Shown in pieces: positions 47,270-57,867 of a stretch of DNA of 64,000 nt. Below the pieces are notes generated by a model. The model made no database searches and was not told the origin of the DNA. It worked only from the letters and a program-made list of their open reading frames with translations. Each line of letters opens with the position of its first letter. Within the stretch, counting starts at the first letter, position 1. The position numbers and the translations under genes were made by a program. Origin of the DNA: an uncultured delta proteobacterium (GTDB lineage: Bacteria; Desulfobacterota; Binatia; Binatales; Binataceae); NCBI GenBank assembly GCA_963711565.1, contig CAVQEQ010000001.1, forward strand, positions 544,001 to 608,000, read 5' to 3'.

Positions 47270-48157
47270 ATGGCGGCAACGTCGCTGGAACAGTTCCTCG
47301 AAAAGTACCGCGACACAATTGATCGCCTGCATTCCCTTAGCAACGCCGCTGCGTGGCGCGTCTCACGAACGTCTTTCGCCGCCGCGTTGTGGCGCAGCTT
47401 CGATCGCCGCTTCGGTGCCGATTCGAACGCCGTCACGCGCGCGGAAGCCGTGCGCTTTCTCGACTCTCTGCATGCCGCCGATCTCGCGCTCGCCATCGGA
47501 TGCCGCGACGGCGACGCCAGTGCCTGGCGTCATCTCGTCTCGACCTATCGCGCGCCCATCGACGCGTTCGCACGGGCCGTCCTCGGCAACTCCTCGCGCG
47601 CGAGCGAGATCGCCGATTCGTTGTGGGCCGACCTCTACGGTTTGCGCTCATCCGACGGCGCGCGCCGCTCTCCCCTCGAGCATTACGGCGGCCGTAGCTC
47701 GCTGACGTCGTGGCTCCGCGTCGTCGTCACCCGGCTCGAAGCCGATCGATGGCGTGCGACGCGCCGCATGGAACCGCTGGACGAGGAGCGCGACGGCGGT
47801 TCCGGCTTGCTCGCCGACGGGACCGATTCGCCCGACCCCGATCGCGCACGGTTACTTGGCGCCCTCGAACGATCTCTCGCCGAAGCTTTGAACGCGCTGT
47901 CGCCGGACAACCGTCTGCGCCTCTCATATTATTATGTGCAGAATCTGACGCTCGCCCAGACCGCCGCTCTGCTCGGCGAGCATGAGTCGAGTGCGTCGCG
48001 CAATCTCGCCCGCGCCCGCACGGCGATTCGCGAGTGTGTCACCCGCACGCTGCGCCGCGAGTATCGCTTCAGTGACGATCAAATCAGCCAATGCTTCGAG
48101 TATGCGACCGGCGATTGGCCGTTCGACCTCGGCCGCATGCTCGCACTGGGAAAATGA
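47270..48157 (+). CDS. ECF-type sigma-70 factor with N-terminal extension
   Basis: ADLALAIGCRDGDASAW, YGGRSSLTSWLRVV (region 2); LSYYYVQNLTLAQTAALLG..ESSASRNLARAR (region 4 HTH). Confidence 0.82.
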   Translation: MAATSLEQFLEKYRDTIDRLHSLSNAAAWRVSRTSFAAALWRSFDRRFGADSNAVTRAEAVRFLDSLHAADLALAIGCRDGDASAWRHLVSTYRAPIDAFARAVLGNSSRASEIADSLWADLYGLRSSDGARRSPLEHYGGRSSLTSWLRVVVTRLEADRWRATRRMEPLDEERDGGSGLLADGTDSPDPDRARLLGALERSLAEALNALSPDNRLRLSYYYVQNLTLAQTAALLGEHESSASRNLARARTAIRECVTRTLRREYRFSDDQISQCFEYATGDWPFDLGRMLALGK

Positions 48158-49545
48158 TGCCCGACGACAAGACCCCGCACAGCCGCCTTGACGCGATGAT
48201 TCGCAGGAGTCTCGCATCCGGCCTCGACACCTCGGGCGCACAATGCCCCGACGCCGACCTGCTCGCAGCGTTCGCCGAAAACACGCTCGCCCCCGACGAG
48301 CGCACGAAATGGAATTCGCACATCGCCGGATGCGCGATATGCCAGCGCCAGCTTGCGGCGCTCGCCCGAGCCGGTGCGCTCGGCGCTACGCGTTCATCTG
48401 CTCCCCAAGTCGAAACCGTTGACGCCGAAGAGGCACGCCAGGAAGCCGGCGGTTTCTGGCCCGCAATTCGCAGCTTCGTACGATTCATGATCGGTCCGTT
48501 CCCGCTCTCGGTCGCCCTTCACGTCGCGCTGCTGCTCGTTCTGATCATCACCATCCACGAGCAGCGCGGGCGCGAGTTGATCATGGTGAACCTCGAAGCG
48601 GGCGGCGGCGGCGGTGGCGGCAACGAGATGCAGGATCTCGACATGCCCGAAGTGCCGATGCCCGACACGGCGCCGCAGCAGATGGAGCAGCCGACCGCAG
48701 TGGATACCTCGCAAGCCGTGGGCCTCGCCAGTGACTACGTCCGCGCAGCCGGCGGCGGCGGTATCGGCATCGGTCGCGGCGGCGGCATGGGCTCGGGCTA
48801 CGGCCACGGCATCGGCTCGGGCTTCGGCGGGTTCATCGGCGAGTTGCGCCGCAAAGGACTCGACGTGGTGCTGGTGATCGACGGCACCGGCTCGATGCGC
48901 CTGATCATCGACAACGTCAAAGCCAAGATGCAGCAGCTGACGCAGTCGATTCACCGGCTCGTGCCGATCGCCCGCATCGGAATAATCGTGTTCGGCGGCA
49001 AGGGTGAGAAGATGGATATCCAGCCGCTGACGCTATCGCCGCAGAAGCTGAGCACCTTCCTGGAAGGCATCCAGGCAAAGGGCGGCGGCGAATGGGAAGA
49101 GGACACGCTCGGCGCGGTCCAGACCGGGATCGACAAGATGGACTGGAAGCCATACGCCAAGAAGGTGGTGGTGCTGGTCGGCGACTCTCCCCCGCGCACG
49201 GAGGACTTTGCGCCGCTGCTCGCGCTGATCCGGCAGTTCAAAGCCAACAACGGGACGTTCAACACGGTGGACGTCGCGGCGGAGGAGCACGAGCGGTTCG
49301 AGCGCGAATTCTGGCTGAAGGTGCATCGAGAGGAGCCGCCGAAGATCTCGGCGTTGCCAGCGTTCTATCGACAGACTCAAGCCGCGTACAAAGTGCTCGC
49401 CACCGCTGGCGGCGGCTCGATGAAGTCGTTGAGCAAGGACGCGCACATCAACCAGCAGGTGCTAATCCTCGCCTTCGGCGACCAATGGCAATCGCAAGTC
49501 GCCGCCTTCGCCCGCGGCCTGAACAACACCAGCTCAGGTCCGTAG
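48154..49545 (+). CDS. Zinc anti-sigma (zf-HC2) - TM - Gly-rich linker - VWA domain protein
   Basis: CPDADLL...HIAGCAIC; TM SVALHVALLLVLII; DVVLVIDGTGSM MIDAS, GGGEWEE, VLVGDSPP; ATGA overlap with the sigma gene. Confidence 0.82.
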   Translation: MMPDDKTPHSRLDAMIRRSLASGLDTSGAQCPDADLLAAFAENTLAPDERTKWNSHIAGCAICQRQLAALARAGALGATRSSAPQVETVDAEEARQEAGGFWPAIRSFVRFMIGPFPLSVALHVALLLVLIITIHEQRGRELIMVNLEAGGGGGGGNEMQDLDMPEVPMPDTAPQQMEQPTAVDTSQAVGLASDYVRAAGGGGIGIGRGGGMGSGYGHGIGSGFGGFIGELRRKGLDVVLVIDGTGSMRLIIDNVKAKMQQLTQSIHRLVPIARIGIIVFGGKGEKMDIQPLTLSPQKLSTFLEGIQAKGGGEWEEDTLGAVQTGIDKMDWKPYAKKVVVLVGDSPPRTEDFAPLLALIRQFKANNGTFNTVDVAAEEHERFEREFWLKVHREEPPKISALPAFYRQTQAAYKVLATAGGGSMKSLSKDAHINQQVLILAFGDQWQSQVAAFARGLNNTSSGP

Positions 49546-49627
49546 CAACTGTCGGGCGCTTCTGTTTCCTCCTTCCATCGTGGAATGTCGACTGAGGGGT
49601 AGGACACAGCGCGGCAGAATCGCTGTT

Positions 49628-49731
49628 CCCCCTTTCCATCTGGAAAGGGGGCGAGGGGGATAGGACAGCCCGCACCGCATCGCTCTATTGCTTCCCCTTC
49701 CCCATTCCTGGGGAAGGGGCTAGGGGTTAGG
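49628..49731 (+). repeat. REP-like palindrome family A, copies 2 and 3
   Basis: CCCCTTTCCA-TC-TGGAAAGGGG..GGGGATAGG and CCCCTTCCCCA-TTCC-TGGGGAAGGGG-CTAGGGGTTAGG. Confidence 0.75.
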
Positions 49732-49740
49732 GCTCTGCCA

Positions 49741-49770
49741 GAAGTGGCACTGGCTTCAGCCAGTGATTCT
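49741..49770. repeat. REP-like palindrome family B, copy 1
   Basis: GAAGTGGCACTGGCTTCAGCCAGTGATTCT; second copy at 56209-56238 with a compensatory base-pair change. Confidence 0.75.
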
Positions 49771-49801
49771 CTGCTTCGGCCGAAATCCTGTCCGCACACA
49801 G

Positions 49802-50185
49802 CGATGACTTCGTCACACAGACCGACGGTTCAGGACGAGGTAGCGCTACAACGGAGCGCAATGCTAGCACAATCAGGAATCACTGGATGCAGGGGTCACC
49901 CCTGCCTCTTAATCTTGCTCCCCTTCCCGCGAGGACCGAAAAAAGGGGCCGGGGGTTAGGTTCTTGATGAGCGTGCAAACAAACGGTCAGCGACGATTCA
50001 CGGTGCTCGAGCTGCCGTTGTTGGAGATGCCGACCAGCTCGTCGGCGCAGTCATAGCCGTAGTTAAAGGCCGCTTGGGACGCTGGCGTCATGGTGCTAAT
50101 CGCGCTCGCGACAACCGCCCTCGCCGGCCCGGCCCTCGCCTACAAGGCAATAGTAATGGACCAGCCCCAGGCCGACCCAGCCGCC
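49802..50185 (+). pseudogene. Internally deleted duplicate of 52887-53807 (upstream region plus both ends of the membrane-protein gene)
   Basis: Near-identical blocks 49802-49905/52887-52997, 49970-50017/53013-53060 and 50089-50185/53711-53807. Confidence 0.88.
50008..50091 (-). pseudogene. Isolated Rhs/YD-repeat fragment
   Basis: Minus-strand translation MTPASQAAFNYGYDCADELVGISNNGSS fits the YD pattern xxYxYDxxxxLxxI. Confidence 0.6.
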
Positions 50186-50190
50186 GTCTT

Positions 50191-50577
50191 CTAACCCGGG
50201 CTCCTCTGATGCCAGCGATGATACACACTATAAGCCGCTCCTACGCAGATCAGTACGACAGGGGTGAGTGTCGAGAAAAGCACGAAGCCCAGGCGAGTCT
50301 CCAGGTCCGGAATCCACGACGTCAAAAGTTCAGAACATGAGAGGATGACGAGCGCTAACGCAATGGACATCGCAGTAACAAACGCTCCCCACTCATCCGG
50401 AAAATAAGAACGAAAGAAGGTGGGCAGAGCCGCAGAAAGTATGAGACCTGCCGTGTACTCCGCCTCGATGAGTCCCGTCAAAGTCGAAACCGTTAAGCCT
50501 ATCAACAGGCCCACAAGGCCGAGATAGAACTCGAGCCAAAGCGGAAAACGCCCCTTATGGTTCAGTTTGCGACTCAA
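50191..50577 (-). CDS. Putative immunity protein, four TM helices
   Basis: Overlaps the stop of the toxin-like ORF; TTG start downstream of AAGGAG; strongly hydrophobic; atypical codon usage. Confidence 0.6.
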   Translation of the reverse strand: MSRKLNHKGRFPLWLEFYLGLVGLLIGLTVSTLTGLIEAEYTAGLILSAALPTFFRSYFPDEWGAFVTAMSIALALVILSCSELLTSWIPDLETRLGFVLFSTLTPVVLICVGAAYSVYHRWHQRSPG

Positions 50578-51502
50578 TGCACTCAAACTCCTTGGCCTGC
50601 GCCGCAATTTGACATTTGGCCAAAACGCTGACTGACGCAGTAGCAGTCATTGTCGCAACGCGGCCGCCGCATACGAGAAGGTCAGCTCCGTCTGTGAAAT
50701 ACGCGCCGATTCCGCATGCAAGCTCTGCAGCTCCTCCTAGCAAACCCACTTTCGCTTCTGCGTTCTTCGAGCAATCTGCCATGTCAACTATGTATTGCTG
50801 CTGGCAAGATAATTTGGGCTGTTCCTTCTGCAGCGGACGCGCATTGGGGCAGGGAGCAGGATCTCCGCAGAATTGCGGCTCGCCTGAAGACTCCATCGTT
50901 GGAATCTCACCGTCGGTGATACCCAAAATAACTGGATACAGCGGGTGGCGGCCGTGGAGCAACTGACGTGGAGTCGGAGGAGCGCTGTCGCCGCCGCCAA
51001 AAATCGCATCAAAGATGTCGAACAGACCAAACGCGGCAGTCACGATGATTCCTGGGATCGCCCCGGCGGCCCAAGCCGCAGCAAAGATCTTCGGCTCCAG
51101 CACTGCCAATATTCCGGTCAGTGCGAGATTAGAGGCACTCGAAGCGGCTGCAGCTATTCCGGCATCCCCCACGGCAGTTGGGACACCGCCGCTGCCCGAT
51201 GGCCGCGCGATCGCATTGCCCGCAGGGCCGCTGTTGCTGCCGCTGGTACTGGTGGCGCTGGTCTCGGACAACGAGCGGACCAGTTGCGGACTATAGAACT
51301 GTCCGCCGCCTGAATAGTAGTACGTCCCCGGATCGGTATATTCCTTCTCCATGCCTTGGTACAGGAACGGCCAATCGTTCGCCGTGCCGCTCACCGTCGG
51401 CGTTCCTGACGGATCGTAGGTGTACGTTGTCGCCGGCGGCGAGTCCACATTCGCGGCGTTCACCAGACCGAGCGTTGACCCGTCCGCGTCGAGCAGCGGC
51501 AC
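50555..51502 (-). CDS. Orphan Rhs-core module with non-canonical core end and Cys-rich C-terminal toxin-like domain
   Basis: LLDADGSTLGLV...YTYDPSG...PFLYQGME..D.GTYYY...FYSPQLVRSLSE matches the Rhs-associated core; then PRQLLHGRHPLY and a variable tip. Confidence 0.75.
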   Translation of the reverse strand: MPLLDADGSTLGLVNAANVDSPPATTYTYDPSGTPTVSGTANDWPFLYQGMEKEYTDPGTYYYSGGGQFYSPQLVRSLSETSATSTSGSNSGPAGNAIARPSGSGGVPTAVGDAGIAAAASSASNLALTGILAVLEPKIFAAAWAAGAIPGIIVTAAFGLFDIFDAIFGGGDSAPPTPRQLLHGRHPLYPVILGITDGEIPTMESSGEPQFCGDPAPCPNARPLQKEQPKLSCQQQYIVDMADCSKNAEAKVGLLGGAAELACGIGAYFTDGADLLVCGGRVATMTATASVSVLAKCQIAAQAKEFECIESQTEP

Positions 51503-51505
51503 CGT

Positions 51506-51754
51506 TTACGGTTTTGGAGGTGGATCACTCTTAAGTTCATCCGGCACGATGTCTGGGTACATTCGGTACAGGTCATTCGAAAAATTTATCGTATCGACCA
51601 AACATTGGCCGATTAGGCCTAGATACTTATGCCTTTCCTCTGCCGATATGTTGCCTCGCGCAACGTTGTTACTCATATAATCCGAGATCGAGCCAAGGCT
51701 GGCACGGACTCCTGCCAAAAGCGAATCAATTCTTAGTGCAAAATCTCGTTTCAT
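51506..51754 (-). CDS. Putative small helical immunity protein
   Basis: 82 aa, directly downstream of the toxin-like tip; GAGG SD; ends LYRMYPDIVPDEL; AT-richer than the host. Confidence 0.65.
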   Translation of the reverse strand: MKRDFALRIDSLLAGVRASLGSISDYMSNNVARGNISAEERHKYLGLIGQCLVDTINFSNDLYRMYPDIVPDELKSDPPPKP

Positions 51755-51817
51755 TTCGACCTGTTCCTCGTTTCACGAATTGCAAACATCTCATCACGAT
51801 CGGGTCATAGGCTCAAC

Positions 51818-52415
51818 TCAGAAGCCAGCAGCGAAGCCCAATGCTCTAGCTAAGCTCGGCAGTAAAGGTATGACGACCCACCAAGGCGATATCTTCGGTA
51901 CTTGAAAATTAGAAGAGCTGTCCGGAACTGTATTGTGGTTCCGTGGGAAATAGGGCCTCCATTCTGGATAATCACCCGTCCCCATACATTGATTGTAGCA
52001 CCTATAGAACCACATTGACTGATCGGGCGCTTTGTCTCTATTTATTCCCCGCTCCAGCGCCAAATCTGTGCATCGTGCCTGGCACCATTGTGCGTTTCCG
52101 GGACCGTCGCTGGTATTGTCGACAATTTGTTGGAGGGGTGCTGGATTGCACGGCGTCGATGGAGCCGTAGGTTCAGATTCGGTCGATGCCGAGGAGCTTT
52201 CGGTTGGGGTTTCGCTAGGCCGAATCTGCAAAATCTGGTCGTACAGCGGGTGGCGGCCATGGATCATCTGGCGCGGGATCTCCAGGCTACTGCCGCCGCC
52301 TCCGAATAAGTCGTCGAAAAGCTCATACAGACCAAACGTGGCTGCCGCTAAAGCAACATATTCAACAATCGTAGTGAGAGTCGTAGAATCGATATTGGTT
52401 GACTCGCTATTAGAG
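51818..52415 (-). pseudogene. 5'-truncated second toxin-like module
   Basis: FGLYELFDDLFGGGG..IPRQMIHGRHPLY..IL.I...ETPTESS matches the 50555-51502 ORF; different tip with CQARC...CYNQC; 5' end abuts the DUF2071 remnant. Confidence 0.7.
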
Positions 52416-52877
52416 CGCCGGATGCGTGCGCATAGAGCCTGGACCAACTGCCGCTCAGCTGCCACTCATACTCGGCTGTCTTGGCCGCGCCGTTCATGTC
52501 GATGCGATGCTTCATGGGCAGGCAGACATAGTTCTCTCCATACGCAAATCGAGCGATCCGTGCGACTGCTCGTTTGGGAACAATCTCGGCAATAAAAACC
52601 ACACCTCTGCGATCCTCACATCATGTTCTTTGCGGCGAACGTAGAATCGCAGGTTCACCTCATCAAAATCGGTATGAAAGGGAATAGGAACATATCCAAA
52701 GAGCTTTGTGCGGCAGAACCGGAAGCCCACCAGGCTGACGTATGTCCTTCCCTCAAATGAGTCCAGCACGGTCCCCGCCGGAACATGGGCGTCCAGGAGT
52801 TTCGCATCAACCTCGTGATTCAACATCACCAAGTCTAGCCACTCGGCGGAAAGGAAGACGCGTTTTCGCTGGCCCAT
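52415..52877 (-). pseudogene. DUF2071 (YqjF-like) gene remnant, frameshifted near 52620 and 3'-truncated
   Basis: FLSAEWLDLVMLN, YVSLVGFRF, FDEVNLRFYVR, then in another frame RGVVFIAEIVPK...YGENY; stops matching the family at about 52415. Confidence 0.78.
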
Positions 52878-53015
52878 TTGTTCGACCGATGACTTCATCA
52901 CACAGACCGACGGGTCAGGGTGATCGCACGAGGTAGCGCGACAACGGAGCGCGATGCTAGCACAATCAGGAATAACTGGGTGCAGGGGTCATCCTGCCGC
53001 GTTGAAGTGGTAAGC

Positions 53016-53831
53016 GTGCAAACAAACGGTCAGCGACGATTCACGGTGGTCGAGCTGCCGGTATTTCCAATCGTAATGGAATCGTTGCTGATGCCGTTCC
53101 GCTATCTGCCCGAGCTGGCGAAATTCGGCTGGATTCCCTTCGCCGCGATTCTGGCGATCGATCTCATCTGCTATGCCCTCCTGCGCGAGGACGTTTCCAG
53201 GAGCGTGACCAGCAGTCTGATGACGCTCGCGCATTTCGTTCTGTTCACGCCGTTCTCCGTGGCATGGACGAAGCTCGCCGTCAGAGGCCCTCAAGCAGTC
53301 TCGAAGCATCCGCAGTTCTTCTACTCGCGCACGCAATGGTTTTATCTGCTGGCAGGCGCAGCGATGATGGTGGCGCTCCTGGTTCTCGTCGGCATTCCGT
53401 TCGTCGTCGTTCGTTACGGACAGCGAAACTTTGAGAGCCAGATCACACTGCTCGGAGAAACCGGTATGATGCTGGGAATCGGCCTTTACGTTATCGGATA
53501 CGTCCGCCTGGCTTTTGTCTTCCCCGCGATTGCGATCGGCAGGTACGCCGGCATCCGGGCTGCCTGGAGGCAAACGGCAGGAAATATCGAGCGCCTCGCG
53601 GCAATTATCGTGCTCACGCTCCTTCCCTACTGGATCGTCCGCCAGGCGTTCTCATGGTACATGGGCTATCACCCGCCCGGCGTCATCGAGGCGTTCCGCG
53701 GATGCATCGACATGCTGCTAATCGCGCTCGCGACGACCGCCCTCGCCGGCCCAGCCCTCGCCTACAAGTCGATAGTAATGGACCAGCCCCAGGCCGACCC
53801 CGCCGCCCAATCAATCACCGCCGCCCGCTAG
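53016..53831 (+). CDS. Hypothetical multi-TM membrane protein
   Basis: About six TM segments; RLAFVFPAIAIG..AWRQTAGN motif; GTG start 53016 supported by the duplicate copy. Confidence 0.75.
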   Translation: MQTNGQRRFTVVELPVFPIVMESLLMPFRYLPELAKFGWIPFAAILAIDLICYALLREDVSRSVTSSLMTLAHFVLFTPFSVAWTKLAVRGPQAVSKHPQFFYSRTQWFYLLAGAAMMVALLVLVGIPFVVVRYGQRNFESQITLLGETGMMLGIGLYVIGYVRLAFVFPAIAIGRYAGIRAAWRQTAGNIERLAAIIVLTLLPYWIVRQAFSWYMGYHPPGVIEAFRGCIDMLLIALATTALAGPALAYKSIVMDQPQADPAAQSITAAR

Positions 53832-53874
53832 CGCCCTAGAGGAGACCTCTGCATAACTGCGCCGCGTATCTTCT

Positions 53875-54011
53875 CCTCTCCCAGGATGGGAGAGGATCGA
53901 AGGTGAGGGTCCTTATACAGCGCGCGATTTTTTTCGCGCGCGATTCAAGATTCTGCCTCTTATCTTTCATCCGGTTCCCCTCTCCTGAAGGGAGAGGTGT
54001 TAGGGGTGAGG
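53875..54011 (+). repeat. REP-like palindrome family A, copies 5 and 6, between convergent genes
   Basis: CCTCTCCCA-GGA-TGGGAGAGG..GGTGAGGG and CCTCTCC-TGAAG-GGAGAGG..AGGGGTGAGG. Confidence 0.72.
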
Positions 54012-54047
54012 TTCCGCCCACGATTCTCAAAAACCGCCCACTACCCG

Positions 54048-56144
54048 TCACCCGCCATTCCATCCGCGGTCCCGCAATGCCTCGAGCGCGATTGCAAGAT
54101 TATTTTGTGTCTTCTTCCAGTCACTCGGTAACTTGTCTTTGGTCAATACGGTCAGCGCCTGATGATAGTTATCGACCGCCGCTTCCAGGTATTTGACTCC
54201 CGGCCCACGCATGCCGAGTCCTGACAAGGCGTCCCCAAGATCGCTCTTGGCTCGTGCCCATAGGATTGGATCGCGGTCGGGTCTGAAGACTTCGAGCGCC
54301 TCGTTGTAATTCTGAATCGCCTGCTCGAAGCACCAGGATTCATTGGTGCTCTCTCCCATCTCGTCCAACGCATTGCCGAGCCCGGCTTTCAACGTCGCCC
54401 ACGCGATCTGATCGCGCTCACGCGATTGCTCTTCGAGACTGGCCCGAAACGCCTTTACGGCTGCCTCCGGATAACGCGGGTTGGGCTGGACATCGTTCAA
54501 ACTCAGCAGTTCGTTGCCAAGGACGGCCTGCATAGCCGCCCAGCGATTCCGATCCCACTCGCGCGGAAATCCATCCAGTGTTTGCCTGCTGATCGCCACC
54601 GACTCCTTGAGATCTTCGACGTCCGAGCGAGCCTGGCCGCGTAACTCGAGAGCCTCTGCGAGTTGCGCTTGAGCGTCTGCCCAGAGCATCGGATCCGACT
54701 GCTTCGTGTAAACTTTTAGCGCCTCTCTGAAGGCCTCGATCGCATTATCGTAACCACCTGCGTTATCCTCGCGATCCGCCAGCCCGCAAAGCACAGATCC
54801 CAGCTGTGTCTGAGCCGCCGCCCAGCTCATCGGGTAGAACTTAACGTCGAAGCCTTTCACTGCGGCGCGACTATAGTCCGCCGCTTGATGCAGGCTCTCA
54901 GTTCCTGCTTCATGATTTGCAATTTGCTGGAACGTGCGTCCGAGCTGCAGTTGAACCGTCGCCGAATCGAGCGAATCGGAACGCCCCTGGTACACCCCCA
55001 ACGCATCCTTGTATGCGGCCACCGCCTCCTGCAAAGGCCCCACTTGAGCATTGAGAGCTGCGATTTGATTCAGCGCCGCGCCCAGGTTGAGCTGCGCCAT
55101 CGCCCACTCCAGCGGATTACGTTCTCGCGTCCAATCTTCCTGCGCTCGCCGAATGTAAGTGACCGCGCTATTCAACGAATCTTCCGACTTGAGTTCGACT
55201 CCCGAGATTCTGCTCGCAATACCGATCGCGAGATTCACGCGGGCGCGTGCGTCGGCCGTCCACGCACCGCTCTTTCGGGGATCGTCGGCGAGCGCGCGAA
55301 TCTCGCGAATTGTAGGTTCGAGCGCATCGCCAAATTTGAACATCCACTGGTGCATCGAGTCCGCGCTTTGCGTTGCTACGATCAGGCCGATCACCTTGCA
55401 TAGGTCGTCCGGCGGCAACTCCGGCAGCTTGAAGTCCGATGGAAGATACACTCCGCCAAATTGCGCATCGGATCCGAATTTCGTCTCGTAAAGCGGCCCA
55501 ACCGCTGGCGGCGATGCGCCGCCCACCCCGCCCCAGATCAATGCCTCCACCCGCACGTTCGTCACCGAGTTGAGCGCATCGAGATGCGCGAGACCCTGCG
55601 GACGGCCCGAAACCGCAATCGTGGAATTCAAAATGACCGGCGTGATGTGCAACCTCGGATCGATATTCGACAGCGCGTCGCGCAGGCGTGCTTCAAGCTG
55701 CTGGCCTTTGTCGCCTTCGAGATGCGCGATCGCAAAGACGACGCGGATGCGCCACTTTTCAACGTCTGGGTACGGAGCCGACGCCTCCGCGATGTCCGCC
55801 GGCGCTTCGCGCAGCACGTTCGGACCCCGCAGATAGATCGAGGTTTGCTGCAGGATCAGCAACGGCAGGCAAACAATCGCCGCGATACCGGCGCCTCGCC
55901 GCACCGCCTTATAGCGCAGCTTGACCCGCCCGATCTGGACGCGCGCCTTATGCCAAAACGTAAGGCCGCACACGATCGCGGCAACCGATCCCGGAATCGC
56001 AGTTACGATCACCAGGTCGACCACCACCCGCGACCGCGGCCAGACGGCCACAACAACCAGCACGATCACGCCGGCAACCGCAAGTGAATCAGCAAGATTC
56101 ACCCCCGGAAACCGCTCAAAAAAATCCCGCCGCAGACTCCTCAT
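54048..56144 (-). CDS. Membrane-anchored tetratricopeptide-repeat protein
   Basis: N-terminal TM helices; about eight ~46-aa repeats of type PxxWAxxQxNLGxAL...AVxxYxxAL. Confidence 0.82.
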   Translation of the reverse strand: MRSLRRDFFERFPGVNLADSLAVAGVIVLVVVAVWPRSRVVVDLVIVTAIPGSVAAIVCGLTFWHKARVQIGRVKLRYKAVRRGAGIAAIVCLPLLILQQTSIYLRGPNVLREAPADIAEASAPYPDVEKWRIRVVFAIAHLEGDKGQQLEARLRDALSNIDPRLHITPVILNSTIAVSGRPQGLAHLDALNSVTNVRVEALIWGGVGGASPPAVGPLYETKFGSDAQFGGVYLPSDFKLPELPPDDLCKVIGLIVATQSADSMHQWMFKFGDALEPTIREIRALADDPRKSGAWTADARARVNLAIGIASRISGVELKSEDSLNSAVTYIRRAQEDWTRERNPLEWAMAQLNLGAALNQIAALNAQVGPLQEAVAAYKDALGVYQGRSDSLDSATVQLQLGRTFQQIANHEAGTESLHQAADYSRAAVKGFDVKFYPMSWAAAQTQLGSVLCGLADREDNAGGYDNAIEAFREALKVYTKQSDPMLWADAQAQLAEALELRGQARSDVEDLKESVAISRQTLDGFPREWDRNRWAAMQAVLGNELLSLNDVQPNPRYPEAAVKAFRASLEEQSRERDQIAWATLKAGLGNALDEMGESTNESWCFEQAIQNYNEALEVFRPDRDPILWARAKSDLGDALSGLGMRGPGVKYLEAAVDNYHQALTVLTKDKLPSDWKKTQNNLAIALEALRDRGWNGG

Positions 56145-56208
56145 TGTGCCTTAACGCCGGTGATATTAGCGCAATCGCCACGCCTAGCCACATCTCCAGC
56201 CCTTGCTT

Positions 56209-56318
56209 GAAGTGGCACCGGCTTCAGCCGGTGATTCTTTCGCAGCATCAGGGCAGGAAACAAAAAGTCACTGAGTGCAGAGCCTGTCCTGAGCGAAGCC
56301 GAAGGAGGTCACCCCTGC
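56209..56318. repeat. Composite repeat: family B palindrome plus interrupted GCAGGGGTCACCCCTGC hairpin
   Basis: GAAGTGGCACCGGCTTCAGCCGGTGATTCT, then GCAG[AGCCTGTCCTGAGCGAAGCCGAAGG]AGGTCACCCCTGC; compare 49741-49905. Confidence 0.7.
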
Positions 56319-56679
56319 GTGACAATCGTTGTCATCCCTCTATGCCATAATAGCGACATGTCTGGTCTCCCATTCCCACCAACACACCTACCCCAGCGGC
56401 ATCTGCCTCCCGCCAATATGCGCTCACCATTCGCAGCAACTTTACTCTTTGTGATCCTCAGATCCGCGCTTTCTCCCAATGGGTTTCTTTCCTCACCAGT
56501 CGCCTGCACGGAAGAAAACGAAGAGAAAGAACAAATCACTTTTATTCTCAGTTCAGAACATTGTTTGTTTCTATCTCGGCACCTCGGAAAACAAAATCGC
56601 AAGAAAATCGCACCTCCTCCGATCTTAGTTTCAGGGAGACGCCGGGGCTTTCCGCCGCCTTGGCGCGAAGGAGGATGCG

Positions 56680-57867
56680 ATGATTCCGATCCTGGTTGTC
56701 TGCCTCGCCGTGTCCGGTTCGATCGTGATCGTAGCCTTCGCATGGACCAGGATTCGCGGCCTTCCTATCGCCCCCTCGATGCCACCCGGTCTGCGCAACG
56801 CGGCCCGCTTTGCCGGCGGCCCGTTTTCGATTTCGATCGCGATCCACCTCGCGATCCTGCTCACGCTCATCGTCACCGTGCATGAGAGCCGCGCGCGCGA
56901 CCTGCTGATCGTCACATGGGAGCCGGGTTCCCTTCGTTCGGTCGAAGAGGCTGAGCCACACGAGATTCCCGACGTGCCGATGCCGGAGTTCAACACCAGG
57001 ATACCCGACGACTCGCCCCAGCCCGTGGACGTAAACAAGGTGCTCGGCGCCAACTCCAGCGCAATCGCCGGAACCTCGTCCCTCAATGGAATCGATATCG
57101 GCCGCGACCTCGTCTCTTACTTGAATCTCCACCCAGGACCCGGCGGCGACGGTGGCGCGAGCTTTCCATGGTTCATCGACGAGCTGCGCCACAAGGGTCT
57201 CGACATCGTGCTGGTGATCGACGGCACCAAGTCGATGGACTTCGTGATGGCTGACGTGAAGGCGCGGATGACGCGGCTCGCGATACGAGTTCGCCAGCTC
57301 GTGCCGATCGCGCGCGTCGGCGTCGTCGTGTTCGGTGGCAAGGGCGAGCCCCTCGACATTCAGCCGCTGACTCTCTCGACCGTAAAACTGCAAACGTTCC
57401 TCGGCTCGATTCAGGCCAAGGGTGGCGGCGAGTGGCAGGAGAACACGCTCGGCGCGGTGCAGGCCGCCGTAAACAAGATGGATTGGAAGCCATACGCGCG
57501 CAAGGTGATCGTGTTGATCGGCGACTCCCCGCCCGAGCAGGAAGACTTCGCCCCTCTGCTCGCGCTGCTCCACGATTTCAGGCGCAACAACGGCACGCTG
57601 AGCGGCGTCGACGTCCAGGCTGAAGAGCATGAGCGCTACGAGCGAGCGTTCTGGATGAAGGTGCATGGCGTCGAGCCGACGCTGGCCGAAATCGGGCCGC
57701 TGCCCGAATTCGCCAGACAGGCCCAGGCCGCCTACAAGGTGCTGGCGGCCGCGGGCGGCGGCTCGGTCCGTAGCCTGAGCCACGACGCCGAGGTCAATCA
57801 GCAGGTGATGATCCTGGTATTCGGTGATAAGTGGCAGGACGAGGTCAGCCGGTTCGCGTCGAGGTAA
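56680..57867 (+). CDS. Membrane-anchored VWA domain protein, paralogue of 48154-49545 without the zinc anti-sigma domain
   Basis: GPFSISIAIHLAILL TM, DIVLVIDGTKSM, GGGEWQE, DWKPYARKV, LIGDSPP; AAGGAGG SD. Confidence 0.85.
   Translation: MIPILVVCLAVSGSIVIVAFAWTRIRGLPIAPSMPPGLRNAARFAGGPFSISIAIHLAILLTLIVTVHESRARDLLIVTWEPGSLRSVEEAEPHEIPDVPMPEFNTRIPDDSPQPVDVNKVLGANSSAIAGTSSLNGIDIGRDLVSYLNLHPGPGGDGGASFPWFIDELRHKGLDIVLVIDGTKSMDFVMADVKARMTRLAIRVRQLVPIARVGVVVFGGKGEPLDIQPLTLSTVKLQTFLGSIQAKGGGEWQENTLGAVQAAVNKMDWKPYARKVIVLIGDSPPEQEDFAPLLALLHDFRRNNGTLSGVDVQAEEHERYERAFWMKVHGVEPTLAEIGPLPEFARQAQAAYKVLAAAGGGSVRSLSHDAEVNQQVMILVFGDKWQDEVSRFASR

Follow-up and report, generated by a model that had tools for sequence, protein, structure and literature searches.

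An Rhs polymorphic toxin variant of the Binataceae that lacks the DPxG self-cleavage site and carries an unnamed pre-toxin module

The DPxG-x18-DPxG aspartyl protease has been described as common to all Rhs proteins (PMC2935791). A locus of an uncultured delta proteobacterium of the family Binataceae (GCA_963711565.1, contig CAVQEQ010000001.1, positions 544,001 to 608,000; these 64,000 nucleotides are the window, and its positions are used below) raises the question of what becomes of such a toxin when the protease is gone. Between positions 50,191 and 52,415 two tandem cassettes, each a toxin tip followed by a small gene, were described in a sequence-only reading, which noted that the Rhs core of the first ends with neither DPxG nor NLYxY and proposed a new polymorphic toxin family, an Rhs lineage that lost aspartyl autoproteolysis and uses another conserved module for processing, translocation or tip exchange. 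We found all these elements on the minus strand and confirmed the core end, which is FYSPQLVRSLSE. By the sequence evidence, the lineage to which it belongs is real and reproducible across genomes, and is an Rhs polymorphic toxin variant with an unnamed pre-toxin module.

A search with the longer proteins gave 18 relatives, several of them 1,288–1,328 amino acids long, and a search with the module by itself gave 149 representatives at 50% identity, two of which were unrelated noise. A profile built from 60 module sequences matched 53 of the 165 host-family genomes, spread over 12 of 30 genera; the relatives that carry a name are Ca. Binatus and (Ca.) Binataceae. Elsewhere in the phylum, matches came from 7 of 396 genomes and were all marginal (E 0.001–0.01), and the single one that passed a rescan (L155) lacked an Rhs core. 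Two contigs labelled as other taxa are probably mis-binned: L052 (Acidobacteriota) matches L051 at 100% identity over 3,886 nucleotides, and L062 (Acidiferrales) is syntenic with the window. Full-length members, of 1,280–1,430 amino acids, consist of a signal-peptide-like leader, DUF6531, YD repeats forming the shell, a truncated core, a Gly/Ser linker, hydrophobic helices, the motif FxxLFGG-PxIPRxxHxRHPLYxxILG-PxExS and then unrelated tips; eight such database proteins carry N-terminal hydrophobic leaders, and the six that were scanned all have DUF6531 and RHS repeats. The proposed module search gave the supporting result: the module goes with YD-repeat proteins, the tips behind it vary greatly, and the genes downstream are specific to the tip. 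In the open-access literature we found no description of the lineage or of DPxG-less bacterial Rhs proteins, and subscription papers or supplementary tables could hold one.

In the lineage the core stops at YSPQLVRSLSE. DPxG is missing from 139 of 141 distinct core-plus-module sequences, which are not independent samples, and is kept in 2; 26 canonical cores without the module were counted as well, and 45 cores ending before a module were set aside. The catalytic Arg is kept in 1 of 111 sequences and the first Asp in none of the 111, compared with 21 of 25 canonical cores for each. None of eight full-length DPxG-less proteins matches TIGR03696, while two of two canonical relatives do, and this, with the loss of Arg, Asp and DPxG, identifies a derived Rhs variant and not a canonical member. 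In an unrooted tree built from the 53 sequences that include 230 residues of the shell upstream, the 33 without DPxG formed one side of a branch with support 99/96, and the Shimodaira–Hasegawa-like approximate likelihood ratio test (SH-aLRT) still gave 92 after removal of the last 30 residues, which hold the trait columns, and of one long row. The nearest branches are DPxG-bearing Rhs of the same family (L121, L188, L104 and L108), which keep the Arg and both Asp. We take the loss as the derived state because the canonical motif is near-universal (PMC2935791). The ratio of nonsynonymous to synonymous substitution rates (dN/dS) is 0.20 in the core with anchors excluded, and the core is under purifying selection. 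The suspicion that this Rhs lineage has no aspartyl autoproteolysis site was therefore well founded.

The module that follows the truncated core matches no already named pre-toxin domain in Pfam: none of the 60 members had a hit to PT-TG, PT-VENN or PT-HINT at E 0.05, and at most 3 of the 60 touch glycine-zipper models, weakly. We found no similarity between its profile and PDB sequences, and the best ESM Atlas result with the module was 0.84, to unrelated families. L121 and L188, in which both DPxG motifs are intact, carry its front half (helix-FxGGG-PxIPRxxxH) after the cleavage site and lack HPLYxxILG..PxExS; the front half is thus a pre-toxin region probably older than the loss of DPxG, and only proteins that have lost the protease were seen to carry the back half. 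The lineage is a subfamily of Rhs and not a new scaffold, and its module shares its front half with these two DPxG-bearing relatives. As a separate matter, we considered whether HPLY..PxExS is the displaced canonical NLYxY..DPxG half and rejected this at the sequence level (hhalign 0.2%; L121 and L188 have the module front after an intact DPxG). Like PT-TG (the PreT of WapA) and PT-VENN (of CdiA), the module is a conserved carrier-to-tip segment at the swap point that may serve entry or processing, but its motif is different and it follows a protease-dead core. Canonical Rhs (Rhs1, RhsA and Tse5; the Sec-exported Rhs and WapA) share with the lineage the DUF6531 lid, the YD shell of about 1,010–1,070 amino acids and the first half of the core, as well as variable tips with downstream partners, orphan arrays, tip displacement by recombination and several toxin domains. 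They have the DPxG-x18-DPxG motif, the catalytic Arg and the TIGR03696 match, whereas the lineage has none of the three, is missing about 30 amino acids of the plug, has an extra 87-amino-acid linker-plus-helix segment and has its tip boundary and main crossover shifted to HPLY/PLQ.

Full-length members begin with leaders that, read by eye, resemble signal peptides. Directly upstream, wherever the 5' end is intact (six loci; L109 breaks off before the core), stands a small gene that encodes a single YD hairpin and in most cases an IPT/TIG domain. In the family such a gene precedes canonical as well as DPxG-less Rhs genes, as at L040:13316-13816, L041:13758-14336, L033:1768-2472 and, in the host genome, G000:C1:1208213-1208866. 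It has matches in 21 of 165 genomes and looks like a split-off N-terminal part in which the N-terminal DP site is replaced by GE(E/Q)F, so that, unlike in canonical Rhs elsewhere, the N-terminal YD/IPT-TIG part would be on a separate gene both in the lineage and in its canonical relatives within the family. Whereas Rhs proteins linked to type VI secretion come with such a system and with PAAR/VgrG linkage, the lineage has the leaders described above; in the five genomes examined, GspD was found in all and a type VI sheath gene in none. We infer export by Sec and probably type II secretion.

How cargo exits an Rhs shell is described as still open (PMC8636562), and the size of the uncut chain bears on it. 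The AlphaFold model of one member, P0008, matches Rhs and teneurin shells (Foldseek, E about 1e-29 to 1e-20) and predicts two helices; shell length in the family is 1,009–1,073 amino acids. The uncut extension has a median of 24.4 kDa (n = 118), compared with 15.6 kDa for canonical tips (n = 26). Proteins occupy about 1.21 Å3 per Da, which gives the extension a volume of about 29,500 Å3. Published shell cavities measure about 28,000 Å3 in Rhs1 (PMC8636562) and about 32,000 Å3 in Tse5 (PMC10684867). Since the extension would take up roughly a whole measured cavity, half of the plug is gone and a flexible linker comes next, we favour a partly external tether with membrane-seeking helices; hydrophobicity is 1.6 or higher in 78 of 116. 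Teneurins, which lack the cleavage motif, thread their uncleaved C-terminus out of the shell (PMC13018210), and by this analogy the tips may be carried uncut on the tether and leave the shell through the half-deleted C-terminal plug, a proposal whose chances we judge to be even. Metazoan teneurins share with the lineage a YD shell without the cleavage motif and, on the reading favoured here, an uncleaved C-terminal region, whose exit from the shell is demonstrated in teneurins and would take place here as well. They also have NHL, FN-plug, EGF and N-terminal membrane domains, whereas the lineage proteins, of about 1,300 amino acids, show only DUF6531 and RHS repeats, have polymorphic tips with partner genes and lost the site independently, within a bacterial clade.

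A tethered toxin of this kind would be exported by Sec, probably through type II secretion, together with the small YD/IPT-TIG partner encoded upstream. Part or all of its linker and helices would be outside the shell, like the uncleaved C-terminal region of teneurins, and the helices would enter the membrane of a rival and place the tip there. Most tips would act in the envelope while still attached; those with cytoplasmic targets would require a protease in trans, cutting at or after the motif. Orphan arrays would supply immunity and, through homologous recombination, new tips.

Several observations weigh against such a tether. Cleavage is essential for the toxicity of Rhs1 and Tse5 (PMC8636562, PMC10684867), and a Glu adjoins the lost first Asp in 64% of the lineage sequences. 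The dN/dS around the motif is only 0.42–0.59, again with anchors excluded. The predicted local distance difference test (pLDDT) score of the P0008 model is about 40 at the motif, a full-shell model with both plugs stays below 50 for nearly the whole extension, and the extension's position is thus given by neither. Tips reach up to 21.5 kDa in some canonical relatives, and the length after HxxY (median 129 amino acids, 5–95% range 85–147) is that of a canonical encapsulated tip and fits enclosure equally well. Some tips are of cytoplasmic type (Ntox37-like, or with HEAT-repeat partners) and would need entry. Frames of at least 1,279 amino acids numbered at least five in 165 genomes, with up to three candidates scored per genome, and one of them lacks its 5' end. 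Finally, homologues of the 82-amino-acid gene that follows tip 2 in the window stand alone in 18 other genomes (L206–L225) and not behind tip 2.

The post-motif length would suit a closed shell with an enclosed tip, in which the His/Tyr and Glu/Ser of HxxY..PxExS would perform the cut in cis (an N-to-O acyl shift at Ser would be one way) in place of the aspartyl site. In the main clade the four residues are conserved at 98% (His), 100% (Tyr), 78% (Glu) and 90% (Ser), but over the divergent subclades 36 of 56 sequences have the Ser and 23 of 58 the Glu. The HPLY..PxExS half is missing from the two relatives that keep DPxG together with the front half, and a bacterial teneurin-like protein is cleaved before a conserved Ser, at a place upstream of its shell (PMC13018210). 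Neither AlphaFold model, however, predicts a folded active site, the profile resembles neither the canonical second plug half nor PDB sequences in the comparisons given above, and the linker and helices would still need space in the shell. We consider self-processing of this kind unlikely.

What the chain delivers is highly diverse. The 202 tails fall into 80 BLAST families, and named toxin-type domains occur in 20 of 141 proteins, several of them below the curated cut-off (phospholipase A2 in 7, DPBB in 3, 3D in 3, DUF4329 in 2, Ntox44 in 2, eCIS core in 2 and Ntox37 in 1). Many other tips are Cys-bracketed hydrophobic stretches like tip 1 of the window, which an Atlas model aligns to helical hairpins. 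A downstream gene was picked automatically for 92 of 100 cassettes, some of the picks being wrong. Related tips are followed by related downstream genes in 31 of 91 pairs, compared with a permutation mean of 0.9 and a maximum of 6 in 2,000 permutations. Hydrophobic segments occur in 63 of the 92 downstream genes, and multi-pass membrane partners follow Cys-rich tips more often than others (27 of 43 versus 15 of 49, p = 0.003). Orphan arrays, typical of polymorphic toxins (PMC2935791), are also present in relatives. On these sequence patterns it is very probable that the lineage is a polymorphic toxin–immunity system.

Among the downstream genes we also observed Rce1-like (CAAX/Abi) membrane proteases behind several unrelated Pro-rich or helical tips (L007:362-1192, L031:9735-10580, L035:9929-10693 and L174:716-1651), and ClpX-type zinc fingers, HEAT repeats, FHA and JAB domains behind others. 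Ntox44-like tips (L028, L072 and L171) precede genes with hydrophobic leaders or membrane helices and not soluble partners. If Ntox44 is a cytoplasmic RNase, membrane-type partners are unexpected for these tips.

With 121 of 141 proteins lacking a named toxin domain, and with a loss of cleavage that parallels teneurins, the proteins might instead be no weapons at all, but surface-displayed or membrane-anchored identity or adhesion proteins, bacterial counterparts of teneurins with the downstream gene as cognate receptor. The helices could then anchor in the membrane of the producer, yet only 18 of 116 reach a hydrophobicity of 2.0. The presence among the tips of phospholipase A2, lytic transglycosylase (DPBB, 3D), Ntox44, Ntox37 and DUF4329 domains, the tip-specific partners and the orphan arrays, which are typical of polymorphic toxins (PMC2935791), make this reading very improbable.

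Tips have been exchanged at a definite place. In P0024, the helix of cassette 2 is joined to the exact tip of cassette 1 at HGRHPLY, on a single contig that could be an assembly chimera; the core and helix of cassette 1 carry three different tips (P0001, P0174/P0175 and P0182), and tip 2 stands behind four other helix modules. P0024, P0174, P0182 and P0231 were counted as chimeras. In 40 pairs with the same helix and different tips, the point where identity ends is between -2 and +8 of the motif Tyr for 23, between +9 and +16 for 6, close to PLQ for 4 and farther on for the remaining 7. The sequences support tip exchange mainly at the HPLY motif, and the role in tip exchange that the sequence-only reading allowed the module agrees with the chimeras and the crossover map. 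P[LV][QLAG][KR] occurs just before the tip in 58 of the 202 tails (shuffle mean 3.8, maximum 11) and forms a second site of crossover. We do not claim a hydrophobic-x-x-[VA]Q motif ahead of the tips: its 21 of 202 occurrences compare with a shuffle maximum of 20, and a looser pattern gave 37 compared with 40.

The same P[LV][QLAG][KR] enrichment could mark a site for an outside protease, of the producer or of the target cell, which would free an enclosed cargo at the motif or at PLQ(K/R), the helices then acting as an entry domain after the cut; CdiA, processed at VENN, is a precedent (PMC9424206). Beside the full-length genes, however, no conserved protease gene was seen, and an enclosed site would be shielded. 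The Rce1-like proteases were tried as dedicated processors and rejected, as they are found at only 4 of 83 scanned downstream genes; they look like tip-specific immunity. We hold release by an outside protease to be distinctly unlikely.

Lastly, the loss of DPxG could mark dead Rhs genes that are retained only for the immunity genes of their arrays. The small number of long frames in the 165 genomes indicates that most carriers hold only orphans or broken copies, and the window array is itself a remnant. Decay is nevertheless the least probable of the explanations considered, for the loss has a single origin and is spread over 12 genera, intact full-length frames with leaders and the upstream partner gene exist, the core is conserved at the dN/dS given above and tip turnover continues.

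The window array shows the parts of the system at nucleotide level. First in array order is the open reading frame (ORF) of cassette 2 (52465-51818, minus strand, as are all array genes), whose helix and conserved module lie at 52190..52414; it has no core here because the array is cut at about 52414, inside a broken DUF2071 gene (5' part at 52415..52901, minus), and intact versions are present elsewhere (P0086 and P0173). Tip 2 (51818..52138, 104 amino acids) has two CxxxC motifs and a hydrophobic C-terminal segment, and is followed by putative immunity gene 2 (51506..51754), encoding an 82-amino-acid predicted soluble protein with 49 homologues. Third is the cassette 1 ORF (51502-50555), which begins with the truncated core (51266..51502; VPLLD..YTYDPSG..FLYQG.E..FYSPQLVRSLSE), from which the catalytic Arg, the two Asp and the C-terminal plug's second half are missing, and continues with a Gly/Ser/Pro/Ala/Thr-rich linker (51158..51265; the family median is 79% of these residues), the hydrophobic helices of the pre-toxin region (51032..51157) and the conserved module FGLFDIFDAIFGGG-PPTPRQLLHGRHPLYPVILG-PTMESS (50885..51031). 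Tip 1 (50555..50836, about 90 amino acids), a six-Cys hydrophobic stretch modelled as a helical hairpin, is predicted to be membrane-active. Last comes putative immunity gene 1 (50191..50607), a membrane protein with at least three membrane helices, whose likely start is a TTG at 50577 preceded by AAGGAG. Its N-terminus (RKLNHKGRFPLW; 50540-50577, minus) overlaps the end of tip 1 and resembles RQLRHGRHPLY (BLAST E 0.05), probably by chance.

Most of what had been read from these letters stood up, including the Cys patterns of the tips and the AT-richer small genes (GC content 46% for the 82-amino-acid gene and 54% for the membrane gene, with flanks at 60–66%). The motif FGLxxxFDxxFGGG..PRQxxHGRHPLY..PTxxS..PC..PLQ is present in both cassettes as claimed, but the hydrophobic helix was borne out only for cassette 1, where hydrophobicity in the module region peaks at 1.59 and 1.86; cassette 2 has no peak above 1.4 there. 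The reported 17-nucleotide identity lies at 50937..50953, over the GRHPLY codons at the main tip-exchange point, and at 52242..52258, and exceeds the longest repeat of 13 nucleotides in 300 shuffles. Given the codon usage of the genome, identical G-R-H-P-L codons in both copies have p of about 0.011, and sharing of these codons among family copies exceeds that expectation; the identity is a coding repeat. In one soil run, contigs diverge from the window at 50937 and at 52240, where the repeat has its edges, and one other contig skips the whole array; the run was compared at 90% likeness, so the diverging contigs may come from related organisms. None of the four array proteins has a Pfam family at E 0.5 or an NCBIfam match better than E 0.13, and no named toxin domain was found for either tip in Pfam, NCBIfam or PHROGs. 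The two tip/gene pairs were not seen to co-occur in relatives. Several of the stand-alone homologues of the 82-amino-acid gene lie directly behind a short conserved remnant, which we take to resemble the end of an IS1-like transposase, and may be orphan immunity genes.

We found no full-length parent gene of the cassettes in the host genome, which is 95% complete, and by its sequence the window copy is a remnant without a parent, two spare tip modules with likely immunity partners. An internally deleted duplicate of 52887-53807 lies at 49802..50185 on the plus strand, with direct-repeat scars on either side of the array (D1, D2, D3 and D6; 91–94% identity). The host genome has 12 canonical TIGR03696 cores and a second remnant of the same core (G000:C1:1021826-1022966, core at C1:1022105), flanked by a 125-nucleotide direct repeat at 99% identity; the gene 3' of it is 42–49% identical to partners of DUF4329-type tips. 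Both remnants lie between duplicated stretches of host sequence, which suggests that they were captured by the same route. The genome also contains canonical Rhs orphan-module arrays and a single full-length canonical Rhs, which has a leader peptide (G000:C1:813800-833900, C4:790000-793400 and C1:1204594-1208184). The array is flanked at 47270-49545 and 54048-57867 by genes for an extracytoplasmic function sigma factor, a zinc-finger anti-sigma/vWA fusion, a TPR protein and a second similar vWA protein, and at 49620-49960 and 53850-54020 by short repeated palindromic elements, resembling repetitive extragenic palindromic sequences, which recruit many contigs from elsewhere. Other cassettes occupy the same chromosomal site in relatives. 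The sequencing runs containing the stretch are mostly from soil; in three RNA runs 5–12% of its words were present, which does not count as evidence of expression.

Taken as a whole, the lineage may represent either an independent teneurin-like transition, in which half of the plug was deleted and an open, cleavage-free shell uses tethered, membrane-inserting helices and the HPLY module to place on neighbouring cells dozens of envelope toxins, mostly unknown and in many cases hairpins stapled by disulfides, or a new self-cleaving chemistry at HxxY..ExS; we offer this pair tentatively, with somewhat less than even confidence. Its cores are missed by TIGR03696, the standard model for mining Rhs toxins, and it offers some 80 families of tips together with candidate immunity genes. 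As it diversifies and yet has no protease, the lineage is a natural experiment on the functions of cleavage and of the plug. Near relatives with DPxG and half of the module accompany it, and it may be a bacterial counterpart of the step from which the uncleaved teneurins arose.

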